A stretch of DNA of 28,139 bases, from the IMG/VR virus record IMGVR_UViG_2744054909_000001; one strand, written 5' to 3'. The stretch is from a virus. Lineage: Duplodnaviria; Heunggongvirae; Uroviricota; Caudoviricetes. The translations under genes and the position numbers were made by a program. Below the pieces are notes generated by a model, which saw nothing but the letters and a program-made list of their open reading frames with translations, ran no database searches and was not told the origin of the DNA. Shown here one piece after another: positions 2,740 through 25,574 of the stretch (positions within the stretch are counted from its first letter, which is position 1; the number at the start of each line of letters is the position of its first letter).

Positions 2740-3433
2740 CCGGGACTGCAGTGTCTCCCGGACGTCATCCGGAAGATGGCTGTAGGGGTTGCCATCCACC
2801 TTATGGCTGCCGCTGTAAATCAGCGTGATTTCCACACCCTGTTTCTCCAGCGCAGCACCGTAATTACTGTGAGCCATCATGACGCCGATGGAGCCTGTCC
2901 GGGCGGTCTGCGTGACCAGACGCCGGGAGGCGGCACTGGCAAGCAACTGACCTGCACTGCAGTTCATGTCGTTGGCAAGCGCCCATACCGGTTTTATGTC
3001 ACGCACACGGGCGATGATGTCAGCGCAGTCAAATGCCCCCGCCACCATCCCGCCGGGCGTGTCCATATCGAGCAGAATGCCGTCCACCATCGGATCGCTG
3101 GCAGCCTGTTGCAGACGGGCGATAATGCCGTTGTAACCGGTCATCCCCGAGTACGGCTGCAGCGCCCGCGTCCGGCTGACCAGCGTGCCGGACACCGACA
3201 GCACGGCGATGCCGTTCATGACCTGATAACTGCGGGCCTGTCGTGGTCCGTCATCATCACCGGATAATGCCAGCGTCGCGAGTGCCTCCTGGGCAGTCAG
3301 GCTGTCGCCGGACACCGCATCCGTCAGGCGGCTGATCCCAAGCTGGCCTGCAAGCGCACAAAAGAAAACCCGCGCATAGGCGGGTTCAAGCATCAGCGGC
3401 TCATTAAAGGCCATGCTGGCAATATGCGGGAGA

Positions 3434-7689: not shown

Positions 7690-7900
7690 CACGGACAAAA
7701 ACAGAGAAAGGAAACGACAGAGGCCAAAAAGCTCGCTTTCAGCACCTGTCGTTTCCTTTCTTTTCAGGGGGTATTTTAAATAAAAACATTAAGTTACGAC
7801 GAAGAAGAACGGAAACACCTTAAACCGGAAAATTTTCATAAATAGCGAAAACCCGCGAGGTCGCCGCCCCGTAACCTGTCGGATCACCGGAAAGGACCCG
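7690..7900 (-). other. cos packaging site (cosB, cosN, cosQ); cosN 12-nt cohesive end at 7858-7869
   Basis: The minus strand reads GGGCGGCGACCTCGCGGGTTTTCGCTATTTATGAAAATTTTCCGGTTTAAGG.., the lambda left-end sequence; the + strand at 7870-8060 matches the lambda right end (..GGGTCCTTTCCGGTGATCCGACAGGTTACG). cosB lies between cosN and nu1. Confidence 0.88.
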
Positions 7901-8068
7901 TAAAGTGATAATGATTATCATCTACATATCACAACGTGCGTGGAGGCCATCAAACCACGTCAAATAATCAATTATGACGCAGGTATCGTATTAATTGATC
8001 TGCATCAACTTAACGTAAAAACAACTTCAGACAATACAAATCAGCGACACTGAATACGGGGCAACCTC

Positions 8069-8302
8069 ATGTCAACGAAGAACAGAACCCGCAGAACAAC
8101 AACCCGCAACATCCGCTTTCCTAACCAAATGATTGAACAAATTAACATCGCTCTTGAGCAAAAAGGGTCCGGGAATTTCTCAGCCTGGGTCATTGAAGCC
8201 TGCCGCCGGAGACTGTGCTCAGAAAAAAGAGTTTCTTCTGAAGCAAACAAAGAAAAGAGTGACATTACTGAATTGCTCAGAAAACAGGTCAGACCAGATT
8301 GA
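8069..8302 (+). CDS. ynfO: YnfO-like small prophage protein (77 aa)
   Basis: MSTKNRTRRTTTRNIRFPNQMIEQINIALEQKGSGNFSAWVIEACRRRLCSEKR.. matches my recollection of K-12 Qin YnfO; its 5' end lies in sequence shared with the lambda right end. Confidence 0.75.
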   Translation: MSTKNRTRRTTTRNIRFPNQMIEQINIALEQKGSGNFSAWVIEACRRRLCSEKRVSSEANKEKSDITELLRKQVRPD

Positions 8303-9575: not shown

Positions 9576-9768
9576 TTTCAAATCCAACGACAGACGGCTG
9601 GCATTTAAGTATTGTGAAATATTATCAAATGTAATCATCATTGATTTACAAAAGATACATTTTGCCCCGAAAGGATTCATGTCAGAAACATCAAAAGATG
9701 ATGTTCTATACTGGGAACCATGACAACACGGGCATCTAAAGTGAATATGGTTTGTAATATTGTCTACC

Positions 9769-9981
9769 TCAAAGCGCCACTACATGAACAGCGGCAGGAC
9801 CTTTAGGTCCGTTCTCAATACCAAATTCAACTTCCTGATTCTCAGTTAATGTTTTGAAATCGTTGCTCTGAATTGCTGAGAAATGGACAAACACATCTTT
9901 GCTGCCATCTTTCGGCGTGATGAAACCAAAACCTTTTTCAGGGTTAAACCATTTCACTAAACCAGTCATTTTGTTAGACAT
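9769..9981 (-). CDS. cspI: Cold-shock protein CspI-like (70 aa)
   Basis: [70 protein letters not shown] is a CspA-family cold-shock domain. Confidence 0.9.
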
Positions 9982-10343
9982 AATTATTACCTTTTGAAGA
10001 AATTAGCCCTTGGGCAGAATGGTCCGAAAAAAAATATCAGAGAGAAAAACCAACAAGGAAATCTCAAGAGGTACAAATAATAAAATTATAACAATGACTG
10101 CTTCAGATAAATTTGTAACAAACCAGAACACCATTAACGCATGATTAACCACCCATAGCAAGGATTACTTTTGTAAAGAAAAACACAGCAATGAAAGAAT
10201 AGCTTTATTTATTAATAAAACGTGTCATTCTGATTAAGACCTTTTATCTTACCCTTAAGATTTCAGGAATTTTGGCTCATGGAAGAGTCCTTTTTATTTA
10301 AATTTTACATTCCGCGATGTAAATGTTCCGATTTAATATTACC

Positions 10344-11367
<1,024 letters not shown>

Positions 11368-11371
<4 letters not shown>

Positions 11372-11679
11372 AGATATTTATGATGAGGACGCTCGTGCTT
11401 ATTGGCAGGATTTTCAATCTTAAAGGAGTACTGATGCTGCAGATAAGACTCAACTTTTTCTGACAATTTTTCTGCTACTTCCAGGAAGACTTGCCGGACG
11501 CTCCTTCTGGCTGCTGCCTCATAAAACTCCAGCGCAGCTCCTTCAACACGGTCCATGGCGACATCCAGGTCAAAAATTTCACCGTCAAAGCGTTCTTTGT
11601 CCTGTAAGGCTACAGTTACCGTAACTTTATTCTCAAAATTACGGACTCCTTTCACAACCAGTTCATAGTCTTGAGTCAT
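11368..11679 (-). CDS. ydfR: YdfR-like DUF1327 protein (103 aa)
   Basis: MTQDYELVVKGVRNFENKVTVTVALQDKERFDGEIFDLDVAMDRVEG..; lies between holin and endolysin as in K-12 Qin. Confidence 0.8.
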
Positions 11680-12372: not shown

Positions 12373-12652
12373 AGATTGTGGTGCTTTTTGTGGGAGTCAT
12401 CCACTTACGCACTTTGTTTTGCCATGCCAGCAGTTAGCTTCTGCTGTAAAACTATTCATGCAGCAAACCTGCACTTCACCACAATGGTTAGCATACTTTT
12501 CCTGATTAAGATTTTGCCAAATATGCTAGCCATTGTTTCATGTATTGGACCTCCTTACTTTTTATTAAAGAGATCCAATATTCACTACTCTGTCCGTATC
12601 TCTACTCAGGCATCAGCCTTCTTCGTTATCGTATACAGACGAGCGATGAATT

Positions 12653-12868
12653 TTAATCAGTAATGATGACATTTGCTGCTGCAGGACCTTTAGCACCACT
12701 CTCTATAGAGAAGGTAACCTTTTGACCTTCAAATAAGGTTCGATAATTATCATTCTGAATCGCAGAAAAATGCACAAACACATCTTTACTACCATCAACA
12801 GGAGAAATAAAGCCGAAACCTTTATCAGCGTTAAACCATTTTACTAAACCAGTCATTTTATTTGACAT
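12653..12868 (-). CDS. cspB: Cold-shock protein CspB-like (71 aa)
   Basis: [71 protein letters not shown]. Confidence 0.9.
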
Positions 12869-13168
12869 TCTACATTCCTTAACTTGAGCCTTTCGGCATA
12901 AATGGTTTGCATAACAGAAACGACTTCGTACTTAATTGGAGAGACTCAAAGAAGGAATAAGTGAATAACACCTGAAATGAGAACTGCTTTAGTAAACTAC
13001 TTCGTATATCGTCTGTTCTTCAAACCGACGCAATCATTAACGCATAGTTGAACATATGAAGCAATGTTTATTTTAGACATCCAGCCATCTTCAACCCCAT
13101 CAAAAAACTATAGCTTTCTTCAGGAACGTGTGTATAGTGCGCCAAGTTATCAGTATTAAGGAATTTTT

Positions 13169-16432: not shown

Positions 16433-16588
16433 TTACTCCTCAGGTTCGTAAGCTGTGAAGACAGCGACCTCCGTCTGGCCGGTTCGGATTCGTACCTCGC
16501 AGAGGTCTTTCCTCGTTACCAGTGCCGTCACTATGACGGTTAAACAGATGACGATCAGGGCGATTAACATCGCCTTTTGCTGCTTCAT
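16433..16588 (-). CDS. hokD: Hok-family type I toxin HokD (51 aa)
   Basis: Hand translation: MKQQKAMLIALIVICLTVIVTALVTRKDLCEVRIRTGQTEVAVFTAYEPEE. The antisense sok RNA and the mok leader are expected in the upstream 16590-16760 region but were not delimited. Confidence 0.9.
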   Translation of the reverse strand: MKQQKAMLIALIVICLTVIVTALVTRKDLCEVRIRTGQTEVAVFTAYEPEE

Positions 16589-16659
16589 AGCCTGCTTCTC
16601 CTGTCAACGCAAAGCAGAAGTGTCACCTTCGGTGCGAAACAGAGATGTCATGCTTTGGT

Positions 16660-16947
16660 TCAGAGAATGCGTTTGACCGCCTCGCTATATACTTCCGAGC
16701 GTTCTCTTTTCCCAACAGAAATCACGAAAACGACAACTTTCTCGTCTATAACCTGGTATACAAGGCGATAGCCTGAAGACCGGAGCTTAATCTTGTAACA
16801 ATCAGGCATACCACGGAGCTTGTTTGCTTCAATCCGGGGTGACTCAAGTACTTCAACCAGCTTCTTTTTCAACTGTTCACGTACCGTCGAGCCCAGCTTT
16901 CGCCATTCCTTTAGTGCCCGCTCGTCAAAATCCAGAAAATACGCCAT
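16660..16947 (-). CDS. relE: RelE mRNA interferase toxin (95 aa)
   Basis: MAYFLDFDERALKEWRKLGSTVREQLKKKLVEVLESPRIEANKLRGMPDCYKIKLRSSGYRLVYQVIDEKVVVFVISVGKRERSEVYSEAVKRIL. Confidence 0.95.
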   Translation of the reverse strand: MAYFLDFDERALKEWRKLGSTVREQLKKKLVEVLESPRIEANKLRGMPDCYKIKLRSSGYRLVYQVIDEKVVVFVISVGKRERSEVYSEAVKRIL

Positions 16948-17186
16948 CAGAGTTCATCCAGCGTCACACGTACTGGCTTAGGATTACGAAGCCGTTCTTT
17001 CACTATCTCCACAAGTTCAGCATCTTCATCACTCAGGAGTGTCTGTTTGAACGGCAAGCGTTCATTGTCAGCGATATACTCGAGCATGAGACGAAGCGCT
17101 TCAGAAGGAGTTACACCCATTTTTTCAAGCGCGGCGTAAGAACGCGCTTTAAGTTCATCGTCAATACGCAGGTTAATGCTACCCAT
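16947..17186 (-). CDS. relB: RelB antitoxin (79 aa)
   Basis: MGSINLRIDDELKARSYA.LEKMGVTPSEALRLMLEYIADNERLPFKQTLLSDEDAELVEIVKERLRNPKPVRVTLDEL; ATGA overlap with relE. Confidence 0.95.
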   Translation of the reverse strand: MGSINLRIDDELKARSYAALEKMGVTPSEALRLMLEYIADNERLPFKQTLLSDEDAELVEIVKERLRNPKPVRVTLDEL

Positions 17187-17196
17187 GTCTTACACC

Positions 17197-17224
17197 TCTT
17201 GTAATTACAAATGTCATTACAAGT
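17197..17224. promoter_or_regulatory. relBE operator/promoter region (relO-like palindromes)
   Basis: Perfect 12-bp palindrome TTGTAATTACAA followed by TGTCATTACAAG, immediately upstream of the relB start. Confidence 0.5.
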
Positions 17225-17516
17225 ATCGCACTACAACATGCTTAGGGCAAGTCACGAAGGAAGTCAGAAAGTAGTCGTAAGAACGGTGATCACTGTCCGC
17301 TTTGTGCCAGGAGCAGCCATTGCTAAGTCCATCCTGTATTGTGCAGGTCAGCTCGTTTTTAAAGAGTCCGGCCATCATCTTACTGGTACAGACACCATAT
17401 ACTTTGTGACGGTCAGGCTACATATGCACAACTCAACTTATTCATCTATTTTTTGCTTTAGCATGTCAGTGTTGCTTTCTCGTCGGCGGGTGAGCGGTGA
17501 CCTGACCTGTCGATAA
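17211..17516 (+). CDS. ydfV: YdfV-like protein (101 aa), doubtful coding
   Basis: The 101-aa length and position match K-12 ydfV, but the start codon lies inside the relO operator and the sequence is low-complexity. Confidence 0.4.
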   Translation: MSLQVSHYNMLRASHEGSQKVVVRTVITVRFVPGAAIAKSILYCAGQLVFKESGHHLTGTDTIYFVTVRLHMHNSTYSSIFCFSMSVLLSRRRVSGDLTCR

Positions 17517-17718
17517 AGGAACGTAACACGTTTTATGCAACACCCGCATGCGGCAGAAAATTATTGCCGAACGTTTACCCCTGTCAACAAGCTTTACTTT
17601 CTGAGGCGCGCCAGCCCGCGAGGAAAACAATCTGAACATCAAACAATTAATGACACAAGAAATACGATTAAAGATTTTTTTGTGCATGCCGATAGTGCTT
17701 TTTTAAAAGGAGAAATCT

Positions 17719-18051
17719 ATGTCTGTCACAATTCAGGGAAATACCTCAACCGTTATTTCAAACAACTCCGCCCCGGAAGGAACATCAGAAATAGCCAAAA
17801 TCACAAGACAAATTCAGGTGCTGACTGAAAAGCTTGGGAAAATCTCATCGGAAGAGGGGATGACGACACAGCAGAAAAAAGAAATGGCTGCATTGGTACA
17901 GAAGCAAATTGAAAGCCTCTGGGCTCAACTGGAGCAGTTGTTAAGGCAGCAGGCAGAGAAAAAGAATGAAGACGCGACAGTTCAGCCTGATAAAAAAGAA
18001 GAGAAAAAAGACGATACAAATACCGCTGGCACCATTGATATTTACGTCTAA
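17719..18051 (+). CDS. flxA: FlxA-like protein (110 aa)
   Basis: MSVTIQGNTSTVISNNSAPEGTSEIAKITRQIQVLTEKLGKISSEEGMTTQQKKEMAALVQKQIESLWAQLEQLL..; good ribosome-binding site (AAAGGAG). Confidence 0.9.
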   Translation: MSVTIQGNTSTVISNNSAPEGTSEIAKITRQIQVLTEKLGKISSEEGMTTQQKKEMAALVQKQIESLWAQLEQLLRQQAEKKNEDATVQPDKKEEKKDDTNTAGTIDIYV

Positions 18052-18065
18052 GTGACAGCCGTATT

Positions 18066-18089
18066 GTGGCCCTCATCGGGCCACTTTTC
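18066..18089 (+). terminator. Rho-independent terminator of flxA
   Basis: GTGGCCCtcatcGGGCCACttttcg, 15 bp after the flxA stop. Confidence 0.65.
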
Positions 18090-18129
18090 GCCATCAGCCT
18101 TTTCTTTAAAGACATATTATCTTTGTATC

Positions 18130-18179
18130 ATTTCTGATAGTTAACATTACAAGAATTTCTGATAGTTAACATTACAAGA
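18130..18179. repeat. Perfect tandem direct repeat, 2 x 25 bp (ATTTCTGATAGTTAACATTACAAGA)
   Basis: Read directly at 18130-18154 and 18155-18179; each unit contains the motif AGTTAACATTAC, whose reverse complement recurs near 19974-20012 on the other side of the transposase gene. Confidence 0.9.
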
Positions 18180-18512
18180 TATAAGTAATGGACGCACTCC
18201 CAATTAGTCTATTTAAATCGCCACGAGTTTAACTGACAACCCATGATCAATTATGAATTGCAACTATTTCTGTAGTCACTTTTGTGGGGACAGTCCACAA
18301 AACTGCCAACTTCCGCTTCTTGCTCTTAGCGGACATTAGCATAGGCTATTTACCATAACGCCTCATTACGCGCACCGCCCAGACTGACTCAGCGCGTTTC
18401 TGGCATATCCCCGGTAAAACAAGTAACAAACCACCCGAAAATGAACACCAGAAACGCGACTTAAGAATCTACCCTATGAATGGATATGCACTCAACCGAA
18501 TCGATCTTGGTT

Positions 18513-19826
18513 TCAATCTTTTTTATCGGGATCAGGCTTCTTTTTAGATAACTTCGGGGGCTTAACTTGCTGATGACTTTGCGTTCGGCGCGTAAGCCAG
18601 GGATGGTCAGCTTTAGGTTTAACATAGTATTTTGAGCGTAAATCAATACGGGCATTATCCACTCGTTCATGGACACTCTTTTCATCATCCAGTGGTATAG
18701 GCTCCGGGCCATCAACATACTTTTCCCAGCCCAGCGCTTTCCCGTCATACAGAACGTTAATTTCACCGTCAAAGTTCTCGCATACAGTAACAACCGAATG
18801 CCTAAGTCGATATCCCCGGCCCTCACTGCGTACCTGAAACGCACTGCTTTTGTACTGGAAAGTGAGATTTTTAGACAGAACGCGCTTCGCCTGTAGGCTG
18901 AAGATATAACCCAGTTCCTCTTCAGAATGGTGCACATCAAGATGAGCATTATCAGTAGTACGAGGCGACGTAGCGAACCGGTTGTTATAGGCTTCAATAA
19001 AGGTCGGCAACCATGCATTTGCTGTTTCAATATCACTGATATTCTGAAGCCGCATTTCTTTGACCAGCCTGTCCTGTAGTGTCTGATTGGCGCGCTCTAC
19101 CCGCCCTTTTGCCTGCGGGCTGTTGGCATGGATTGGCTCGATGCCCAGTGTCTTTATCGCACGAGTGAACTGGGTCAGCTCACCTTCCCGCTCTGGGTTA
19201 TTTACCCTGAATATACTGTGTCTATCAGAGTAGAGAGCGAGCGGTACGCCATGATCATTAAGGTAACCCCGGAGGGTTTCCATGTAAGCCCGGGTTGTTT
19301 CAGCAGGCACAAAACGCAACGCCATCAACGCACTGGTGGCATCATCAATGAAAACGATCAGTGTACATCTGGGGCCTCGATTTTCAAACCAGTCATGAGG
19401 TGAGCCATCAATCTGGATCAGTTCACCGTAAGATGGTCGTCGCATGCGGCGTTGATATATACGGGCAATTTTACGACGGCGTTCACGCCATAACCCCTCT
19501 TCTATCATCCACTTTCTGAGAGTTTCAACGGATAAAGATAAACCGTGTATCTCGCGCAATTTTTCGCACGCAAACGTAGGTCCAAAATCAGCGTAACGGC
19601 CTTTGAGGAGTGAAATTACTGTTGCTCTGAATTCAGCAGAAAAGGAATTATTAGGACGCTTTCCACGTCGGTGGGAAACCAGACCAGAAGGCCCTTCATT
19701 TCTATACCGTTGCACCAGACGTTTAACCTGCCGAATAGAAATGCCAATGCGTGCCGCAGCTTGTTCCTGAATAATCTGAAGTCGGTGGAGTTCCTTATGA
19801 CTCATCGTAACAGTCTCTTTGATCAT
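18513..19826 (-). CDS. DDE transposase with N-terminal HTH and rve (integrase-core) domain, 437 aa
   Basis: Catalytic region ..IQIDGSPHDWF.. / ..LYSDRHSIF.. / ..SPQAKGRVERANQTLQDRL.. is the D-D-E (retroviral-integrase-like) signature; size and architecture suggest IS481 or ISNCY family. GGGGGA ribosome-binding site before the first ATG. Confidence 0.8.
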   Translation of the reverse strand: MIKETVTMSHKELHRLQIIQEQAAARIGISIRQVKRLVQRYRNEGPSGLVSHRRGKRPNNSFSAEFRATVISLLKGRYADFGPTFACEKLREIHGLSLSVETLRKWMIEEGLWRERRRKIARIYQRRMRRPSYGELIQIDGSPHDWFENRGPRCTLIVFIDDATSALMALRFVPAETTRAYMETLRGYLNDHGVPLALYSDRHSIFRVNNPEREGELTQFTRAIKTLGIEPIHANSPQAKGRVERANQTLQDRLVKEMRLQNISDIETANAWLPTFIEAYNNRFATSPRTTDNAHLDVHHSEEELGYIFSLQAKRVLSKNLTFQYKSSAFQVRSEGRGYRLRHSVVTVCENFDGEINVLYDGKALGWEKYVDGPEPIPLDDEKSVHERVDNARIDLRSKYYVKPKADHPWLTRRTQSHQQVKPPKLSKKKPDPDKKD

Positions 19827-20160
19827 GAAAAATCCCCCAGAGAATTGTCTGGGGACATTTTAGAATGGTTCAAAGGGGACATTACAGCTTGGTGTTAACA
19901 ATAGCCTGCTTCTCCGTGCCTTTCGGCACGTAAGAGGCTAACCTACATGTGTCTAGCATGAAATTGGCCTCAGATTAATGTTAAGCGTCTTGCAGGACGC
20001 GTAATGTTAACTGGGGCTTTTCTCTATCTGCCGTTGGTGTCCATGCCCGAGGCAGATAGCCTCAAGCACCCGCAGTCATTCTACTTAACTAAGATTTCCC
20101 CGCAAACCGTTTTTGTCCAGCACAGTAAATATCCAACTAAACCAATGGAGTTCGCTGTAT

Positions 20161-20340
20161 TTACCGCCAGTATTCAATGCACATGACCGCCATGAACACC
20201 CCTAAAAAAAGGGCATTTATATATCCAAATATTAATATCAAAACATCAACTTTTTCCATATACCTTGCTGTGAAGATGATGGGCATACATGATGCGAACA
20301 ACCAGAACGCAACAAACAAAAACTGCAATGCGTTTTTCAT
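20161..20340 (-). CDS. Small two-helix membrane protein (59 aa)
   Basis: MKNALQFLFVAFWLFASCMPIIFTARYMEKVDVLILIFGYINALFLGVFMAVMCIEYWR; strong AGGAGG ribosome-binding site 6 nt before ATG; AT-rich upstream region with promoter-like elements. Confidence 0.5.
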   Translation of the reverse strand: MKNALQFLFVAFWLFASCMPIIFTARYMEKVDVLILIFGYINALFLGVFMAVMCIEYWR

Positions 20341-20589
20341 TATTCCTCCTACAATCAATGTGCAATTACATTTAAACACACCTCAATTTGGCCGGACATA
20401 TAAATATCTAAACCAGAAAAAATCACTTACATAGCGTTACAAACTCTTTAGTCTAAAGGTTCATCGTAAAACATTCCCCATACTTATCAGTCCGTTCCGC
20501 GCCAGGTAGCTCATTGCCTTATCTGGCAACCTGTAATCAGGTTTCCGCTTTTTCAGTTGGCTGGTCGTTTAACCGACATAGTTAATCCA

Positions 20590-21230
20590 TTAATCTAGTT
20601 GCCGGATGTTGGTGGATTTTCGCGTTTTAGTTGTTCATAAAAGTGCACAGCTTTAACCAGTTCTTCTGATGTAACTGGGACTGGTGAGGCAGTGAATAAG
20701 GCCTGAATTTGATAGTTCGGCCTGTCGTTACAATCCTCTTTTTTCGGTACATATTTCCAGTCACCAGACCACTACTTCCCCTGAAAGTCCGTAACGCCTT
20801 TTTTCACGTAGCGATATCGCCATGCCACTGGTTTTGCTTGCCCCGCCGTTTCATGCCCTTCCTGATAATTAATCTCGCTCATTCATCGCCCCACTCATCA
20901 CAATATGCTTCGACCGGAGTTTTTCCCGCTTCATAGTCATCACGCTAGGATTCGACATCAGCAGCACTTCCACCGCGTAACTCACCATAGTCCATTAATA
21001 GTTCATCCCGCTCTTCAAAACTGATGTTATATTTAGCTGAACAAAAATCAGCCACTTTGTTCTTCCTCATCGTCTTTTATTTCGTGGTATGAGTAATTGC
21101 AGTAGTTAAAGAAAATTTCTTATGCTCCGTCATGAATTTCCTCAGGTGTTGCGTCATCGTCCACTTCGAATACATCCTCAAAATCTCCACCAGCTATTCC
21201 CGTTTCAATAATAATTTTGAACTTTCGCAT
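20590..21230 (-). pseudogene. Decayed early-region ORFs (frame-disrupted remnants)
   Basis: Only short ORFs (36-40 codons) on the minus strand; one begins MSEINYQEGHETAGQAKPVAW.. and continues in another frame (..RYRYVKKGVTDFQGK..), suggesting indels. Hand translation, not fully verified. Confidence 0.3.
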
Positions 21231-25521: not shown

Positions 25522-25574
25522 TTTCTGGTGACGTTTGGCGGTATCAGTTTTACTCCGTGACTGCTCTGCCGCCC
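25522..25574 (+). ncRNA. dicF: DicF small regulatory RNA (53 nt; Hfq-dependent sRNA that represses ftsZ translation)
   Basis: TTTCTGGTGACGTTTGGCGGTATCAGTTTTACTCCGTGACTGCTCTGCCGCCC followed by TTTTT matches the DicF sequence as I recall it, with its terminator hairpin; it is processed from the ydfABC-dicF-dicB transcript. Confidence 0.85.

Follow-up and report, generated by a model that had tools for sequence, protein, structure and literature searches.

The window analysed here is the whole 28,139-nucleotide stretch of DNA, which is the Qin prophage of Escherichia coli ATCC 8739 (100% identity over 12 kb), and the question it raises concerns a short open reading frame (ORF) on its minus strand at 20161-20340 (stop codon included): is this ORF a gene, and if it is, what kind of protein does it encode? 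An earlier note on this DNA had described it as an orphan two-helix hydrophobic protein next to decayed genes, and its main idea was a toxin, with superinfection exclusion listed as another role. The reading that we favor, at a probability of roughly 0.6, is that the ORF is a real gene for a 59-residue hairpin protein of the inner membrane that would be expressed early by read-through transcription, act independently of the hok gene downstream, and serve an accessory role at the membrane. The frame runs from an ATG at 20340-20338 to a TAA at 20163-20161 and encodes the protein MKNALQFLFVAFWLFASC..., which is strongly hydrophobic (GRAVY 1.27) and for which the AlphaFold model places helices at residues 2-26 and 28-58, thereby spanning the whole protein (mean pLDDT 74), in agreement with the two-helix description. 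The Shine-Dalgarno sequence AGGAGG lies at 20345-20350 on the same strand and is followed by the 4-nt spacer AATA and then the ATG. It had been called perfectly spaced, and it is indeed a usable and strong ribosome-binding site, although a spacer of 4 nt is among the shorter ones usually seen. AGGAGG is replaced by AGGGGG in 20 of 47 haplotypes. The AT-rich upstream region that had been pointed out is also real, as the GC content is 32-37% in the ORF and the 150 nt upstream compared with 45-50% in the flanks.

An open frame of 59 codons is by itself not unusual in 28 kb. What exceeds chance is the conservation of exactly this frame in a second lineage, which emerged when 1.84 billion representative proteins were searched exhaustively with HMMER (P0038/P0043) and whose protein is exactly 59 aa long and 41% identical over its full length. 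This is the conservation in related prophages on which the earlier note had made its proposal depend, and its view of the ORF as a plausible gene for a small membrane protein in the early region of a prophage was right. The coding sequences of the two lineages (8001-8180 of locus L207 in the second) align without a gap over 180 nt with 73 differences (59% DNA identity), whereas the upstream non-coding DNA can be aligned only with several gaps. The differences are distributed 25/17/31 over codon positions 1, 2, and 3, and dN/dS between the lineages is ~0.19, with synonymous sites near saturation (pS 0.72). When the same 73 substitutions were placed at random in 5000 trials, the frame stayed open in only 1.9% of the placements, and the BLOSUM62 score between the two proteins (153 observed versus 61.7 ± 17.7 at random) was 5 SD above the null model and was reached in 0 of 5000 trials. 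The five other frames over the ORF contain 2-10 stops in one or both lineages. The residues that are invariant between the lineages include W13, S17, C18, P20, I21, I22, T24, F38, G39, N42, A43, L44, E56, W58, and R59, and among the conserved positions S17, C18, P20, T24, G39, and N42 are polar or helix-shaping residues located within both helices. Given the gapless 59-codon frame, the dN/dS ratio, the score relative to random placement, and the stops in the other frames, sequence comparison shows that the ORF is a gene for a protein on which purifying selection acted during most of the period after the lineages diverged, a long-term signal drawn from a single pairwise comparison of two lineages.

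It is against this comparison that a non-coding explanation must be weighed, in which the frame is open by chance, within AT-rich DNA, and has been conserved solely through the recent spread of a prophage block. Such an explanation would account for the fact that PGAP never calls the ORF (60/60 sampled genomes) and for the nonsynonymous nature of every polymorphism within each lineage (discussed below), and copies of the Qin lineage are all at least 95% identical, a range in which intactness says little. However, it would also require that a frame of 59 codons survived without an indel down to 59% DNA identity next to flanks that need several gaps, that the rare outcome of an open frame was accompanied by a protein similarity never reached at random, and that every other frame was broken in the same interval. 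We consider a chance frame to be very improbable.

The start shared by the two lineages is the ATG rather than a GTG further upstream, as an in-frame stop lies five codons ahead of the ATG in the second lineage, and the 72-aa GTG-extended version of the protein was rejected for this reason. Also rejected was an 85-aa ORF on the opposite strand (20177-20434), which two phage records name 'hornerin' and which is interrupted by stops in the second lineage. An apparent relative with 53% identity in E. coli ECMA0423 (CP178302.1, 3941-4240) proved to be the same gene with homopolymer-type frameshifts and was left out of the comparison. Several frameshifts occur within the ORF of this genome, while the adjacent hok and integrase genes are intact; the genome is one used to represent its species, and the frameshifts in it are probably assembly errors.

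The gene is widespread within a narrow host range. DNA of the ORF is present at ≥95% identity in 1567 of 5426 complete E. coli genomes (29%), and the second lineage is found in about 1044 genomes (~19% of complete E. coli). Within viral contigs, 188 of 189 loci retain the intact 59-aa frame, and it is also carried by the phage genome records PhiR42_1, vB_EcoS-640R1, and vB_EcoS-813R8. The two lineages have different homes: one resides in Qin-type prophages and phages, and the other in what is left of a prophage at the ttcA/Rac attachment site, where it lies between ttcA and uspF beside an integrase fragment and fragments of sit genes. No third lineage was found when 5.8 billion proteins were searched with a two-lineage profile, when metagenome contigs were scanned for a degenerate pattern, or when species-representative genomes were scanned, and the family comprises two lineages confined to lambdoid prophages of E. 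coli and Shigella. No RefSeq annotation underlies the ORF in the 60 sampled genomes, searches of Pfam, NCBIfam, PHROGs, and PADLOC with the protein at E values of up to 10 returned no match, and a sequence profile search of the PDB returned nothing. A search of viral folds returned generic helical hairpins only, with holins among the weak matches (best E value 0.94). A full-text literature search found no paper for the peptide, and two papers on hok do not mention an upstream ORF. The region that contains the ORF is deleted in MG1655, the strain in which most ribosome profiling has been done.

The description of the ORF as an orphan without operon partners is contradicted by its surroundings. 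The dicC, ydaT-like, replication, DUF977, and methyltransferase genes (23776 down to 21493, minus strand) have the same orientation and form a rightward early operon that leads toward the antiterminator gene ydfT. No terminator-like site was detected in a scan between these genes and the ORF, a hokD-type hok/sok locus lies downstream, and the hok terminator is the first one met in this direction in the intact phage vB_EcoS-640R1. The transposon and pseudogenes that had been reported around the ORF are present, with a transposase downstream and PGAP pseudogenes upstream at 20461-20882 and 21048-21230; the immediate downstream neighbor is more than a decayed gene, being the promoter and leader half of hok/sok. 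Promoter scans of either strand revealed nothing convincing as a promoter of the ORF itself. With its own ribosome-binding site and no terminator in front of it, the gene is most likely expressed from read-through early transcripts. Based on the annotation of ATCC 8739, PhiR42_1, and vB_EcoS-640R1, it occupies the far end of the nin-like portion of this operon (dicC to Q), and the protein would be translated from its strong ribosome-binding site on rightward transcripts produced after derepression. Some additional regulation is conceivable, as a 13-nt palindrome, CTTTAGaCTAAAG, is located at 20446-20458 (minus strand), ~105 nt upstream of the start of the ORF, and at the corresponding position (L207, ~7895-7907) the second lineage carries CTTCAGtCTGAAG. 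The palindrome has therefore been kept by a two-sided change, and it may be the binding site of a regulatory protein. Elsewhere in the window, the RNAs expected of Qin were found, namely cspA-type thermoregulator leaders at 9742-10127 and 12637-13029 (minus strand) and the DicF small RNA at 25523-25574 (plus strand).

Downstream of the ORF, a genuine type I system went unrecognized in the earlier note. The leader of a hok mRNA, comprising the mok start and the sok target region, is found at 19900-20071 (minus strand) as a match to Rfam RF01794 (104.1 bits, E value 6.6e-23, model positions 1-157). The name of RF01794 refers to the sok antitoxin, but its match is on the hok mRNA strand and extends from the 5' end of this mRNA to the hok AUG; the family is in effect a model of the hok leader and not of the antisense RNA. 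A promoter-like site (TTGCGG, a 16-nt spacer, and TAGAAT; 20078-20105, minus strand; weight-matrix score 7.8) begins ~56 nt after the stop codon of the ORF and ends 6-7 nt before the 5' end of the hok mRNA, a position that fits the start of the Rfam match. In the window, alignment with the intact hok of vB_EcoS-640R1 indicates that the leader is cut after the 'AT' of the hok ATG and continues into foreign DNA. This IS-cut form accounts for 20 of the 93 distinct loci that extend far enough downstream, while in 71 of the 93 an intact Hok ORF of 51 aa follows the stop codon of the 59-aa ORF at a distance of ~258 nt. Behind the ORF of the second lineage are 66 nt that are 80% identical to the 3' half of the hok coding sequence, a deletion of ~273 nt having removed the hok promoter, leader, and 5' half. 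As hok sequence follows the ORF in both lineages, their pairing is older than the split between them.

The other half of the hok locus in the window can be located as well. A perfect 15-nt direct repeat, ATAGCCTGCTTCTCC, occurs at 19901-19915, where it covers the ribosome-binding site and start region of hok, and again at 16587-16601. Between the two copies lies a segment of 3,299 bp (16602-19900) that contains an ISNCY-type transposase ORF, ydfW, flxA, ydfV, relB, and relE, ends in inverted repeats that match at 15 of 21 positions, and is absent from vB_EcoS-640R1. It separates the hok leader, on the left flank in the layout used here, from the coding sequence of hokD (relF; 16433-16588, minus strand), which, by annotation and by alignment with vB_EcoS-640R1, is the detached half of the same locus: from ~15 nt before the ATG up to the T-run of the terminator, hokD and the hok of this phage differ by 3 mismatches. 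The arrangement looks like a single hok/sok locus that was split by one transposon-like insertion, with hokD becoming the tail of the relBE operon and the promoter/mok/sok half left stranded beside the 59-aa gene, and it suggests that the classic relBE operon arrived as the cargo of this insertion. The anatomy around the 59-aa gene thus locates the missing regulatory half of hokD (relF), which in MG1655 was lost together with the gene itself. Within the inserted segment, a single uninterrupted ORF of 437 aa derived from a transposase (18513-19826, minus strand) spans what PGAP annotates as an ISNCY-family pseudogene (18783-19805, 'incomplete; missing C-terminus') and the 49-aa YdfW (18513-18662), and YdfW is thus the tail of the transposase-derived ORF. 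A 25-nt unit, ATTTCTGATAGTTAACATTACAAGA, is also present in the segment as two perfect tandem copies at 18130-18179.

With a type I locus directly adjacent, it is reasonable to ask whether the 59-aa protein is itself the toxin of a second pair, a membrane-depolarising peptide controlled by its own antisense RNA. It has the general character of such toxins, being small and very hydrophobic, with two predicted helices, a strong ribosome-binding site, and a location in a prophage. The specific features of these systems, however, were not found. The protein matches neither Hok/Gef nor any other toxin family, and although both are small hydrophobic membrane proteins of prophages encoded by adjacent genes, Hok/Gef proteins have one helix and a periplasmic tail with a cysteine, whereas the 59-aa protein is modelled with two helices and has no sequence similarity to them. 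No antitoxin RNA family of Rfam lies over or beside the ORF except for the hok leader further downstream, and the ORF shows no sign of the mok-type coupled frame, the Sok-like antisense RNA, or the kind of folded leader that accompany hok. The search for an antisense promoter proposed in the earlier note was carried out by consensus scans, a weak form of evidence, and no candidate was present at homologous positions in the two lineages. Nor is the ribosome-binding site hidden by structure in the mRNA, as the 5' region is no more structured than shuffled sequences (z scores of -0.15 and +0.63 for the fold energies) and the Shine-Dalgarno sequence is unpaired in the predicted minimum-energy fold. 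Furthermore, the remnant at the ttcA site keeps the ORF with no sign of an antitoxin gene, the adjacent hok having been deleted. By these testable features, the idea of a type I toxin is not supported for the 59-aa protein; that it is controlled by an antisense RNA of its own is improbable, and a toxin in its own right is possible at low probability.

A different connection between the two loci would be that the 59-aa protein is a partner of Hok, which modulates, blocks, or assists it as part of a three-part module of ORF, hok, and sok. In both lineages, hok or a remnant of it lies directly downstream wherever the locus is long enough to check, no terminator separates the two genes, and the linkage predates the divergence of the lineages, all of which is what a module would lead one to expect; it could, however, reflect no more than inheritance of gene order. 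The hok loci of the phages Tritos, mEp460_ev081, and Stx2 II are 93-99% identical and have no such ORF upstream, and no equivalent small ORF was found upstream of the other hokD/hokW-type loci in Tritos and Stx2 II. The hok/sok system of plasmid R1 works on its own, and the 59-aa ORF has outlived the inactivation of hok in both lineages. The protein is neither a homolog of Hok nor a required part of hok/sok, and a partnership with Hok is unlikely; the association of the gene with hok/sok is interesting, though unproven.

Whether the gene still performs a function is a separate matter from whether it once did. There are 15 polymorphic sites in the ORF, 11 in the Qin lineage and 4 in the second lineage, and all 15 are nonsynonymous, with 9 at codon position 2. 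This differs significantly from the ratio of nonsynonymous to synonymous changes between the lineages (15:0 versus ~48:25; Fisher p = 0.0047), and it would be consistent with the view that a phage gene that once worked has become a relic without function, left to drift in cryptic prophages. The pseudogenes and insertion that surround the ORF in the window fit such a view, as does the occurrence of disrupted and frameshifted alleles. Two of the disrupted alleles (L238, ~544-548, and L239, ~3121-3125) arose independently and are broken at the same point after codon 41 (GGATATATA|), beyond which the sequence is unrelated, and the site may be a hotspot for insertion or recombination; truncated protein clusters of the family exist as well (P0026 and P0027). 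A relic would not, however, be expected to show a polymorphism density about half that of the flanks, as the ORF does in both lineages, nor to be intact at nearly all viral-contig loci and carried in the records of three phages, and many of the variants are singletons from draft assemblies. We therefore regard a relic as possible though doubtful. Within the lineages there is no sign of present-day purifying selection; current selection on the protein looks relaxed and is possibly diversifying, and the all-nonsynonymous pattern could be the result of errors in singletons, of relaxed selection, or of diversifying selection. A bolder proposal, which we consider a long shot, is that the protein is either a third, protein component of some prophage hok/sok loci that gates, neutralises, or potentiates Hok, or the founder of a new family of small two-helix membrane effectors of phages under diversifying selection. 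If the former were true, it would explain why the adjacency to hok was kept through ~60% protein divergence, and the latter, if true, would explain the polymorphism pattern.

Under the reading that we favor, an accessory hairpin protein of the inner membrane, the most likely role is that of a phage protein that acts at the membrane, and its predicted form permits comparison with known proteins of this kind. The charged residues are K2 at the N-terminus, R26, E29, K30, and D32 in the central loop, and E56 and R59 at the C-terminus. In the predicted topology, the protein would insert as a hairpin in which both termini are probably cytoplasmic and a short acidic or neutral loop faces the periplasm. 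Class II holins and pinholins, such as S21 of phage 21, are likewise small, with two membrane helices and both ends predicted inside, but they are encoded in lysis cassettes and have a charged C-terminal tail. The 59-aa gene lies ~9 kb from the lysis genes of the prophage (ORFs ~10344-11679; essQ, ydfR, rrrQ, and rzpQ), the protein ends in EYWR only, and no holin family was matched in Pfam or PHROGs, and a holin was rejected based on position and tail. Superinfection-exclusion proteins such as HK97 gp15 and T4 Imm offer a second point of comparison, as they are also tiny accessory phage proteins of the inner membrane with a narrow distribution and AT-rich genes. Proteins of this type are made in the lysogen; for the 59-aa ORF, by contrast, scans yielded no promoter of its own, and no homology to these proteins was detected; described defence and exclusion families gave no match in PADLOC or PHROGs. 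The accessory role that we consider most likely could, for example, be to keep out other phages or to adjust the host membrane in the course of lytic growth. A third comparison is with the newly recognized small proteins YnfQ, YnfR, YnfS, and YnfU of the Qin prophage in E. coli K-12, encoded by short ORFs of the same prophage that were also missed by standard annotation; these are now annotated in the MG1655 record, whereas the 59-aa gene belongs to the segment missing from MG1655.

Temperate phages commonly encode small accessory membrane proteins, and the 59-aa gene is in this sense real and ordinary in kind: it represents a new family of small prophage membrane proteins that has been overlooked by annotation. 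It was missed by reference annotation and by all four family libraries despite being carried by ~29% of complete E. coli genomes, with its sister copy in ~19%. The gene is a concrete and testable addition to the small membrane proteins of E. coli prophages, and its position beside hok/sok provides a specific hypothesis for such tests, that of interaction with Hok or independence from it.
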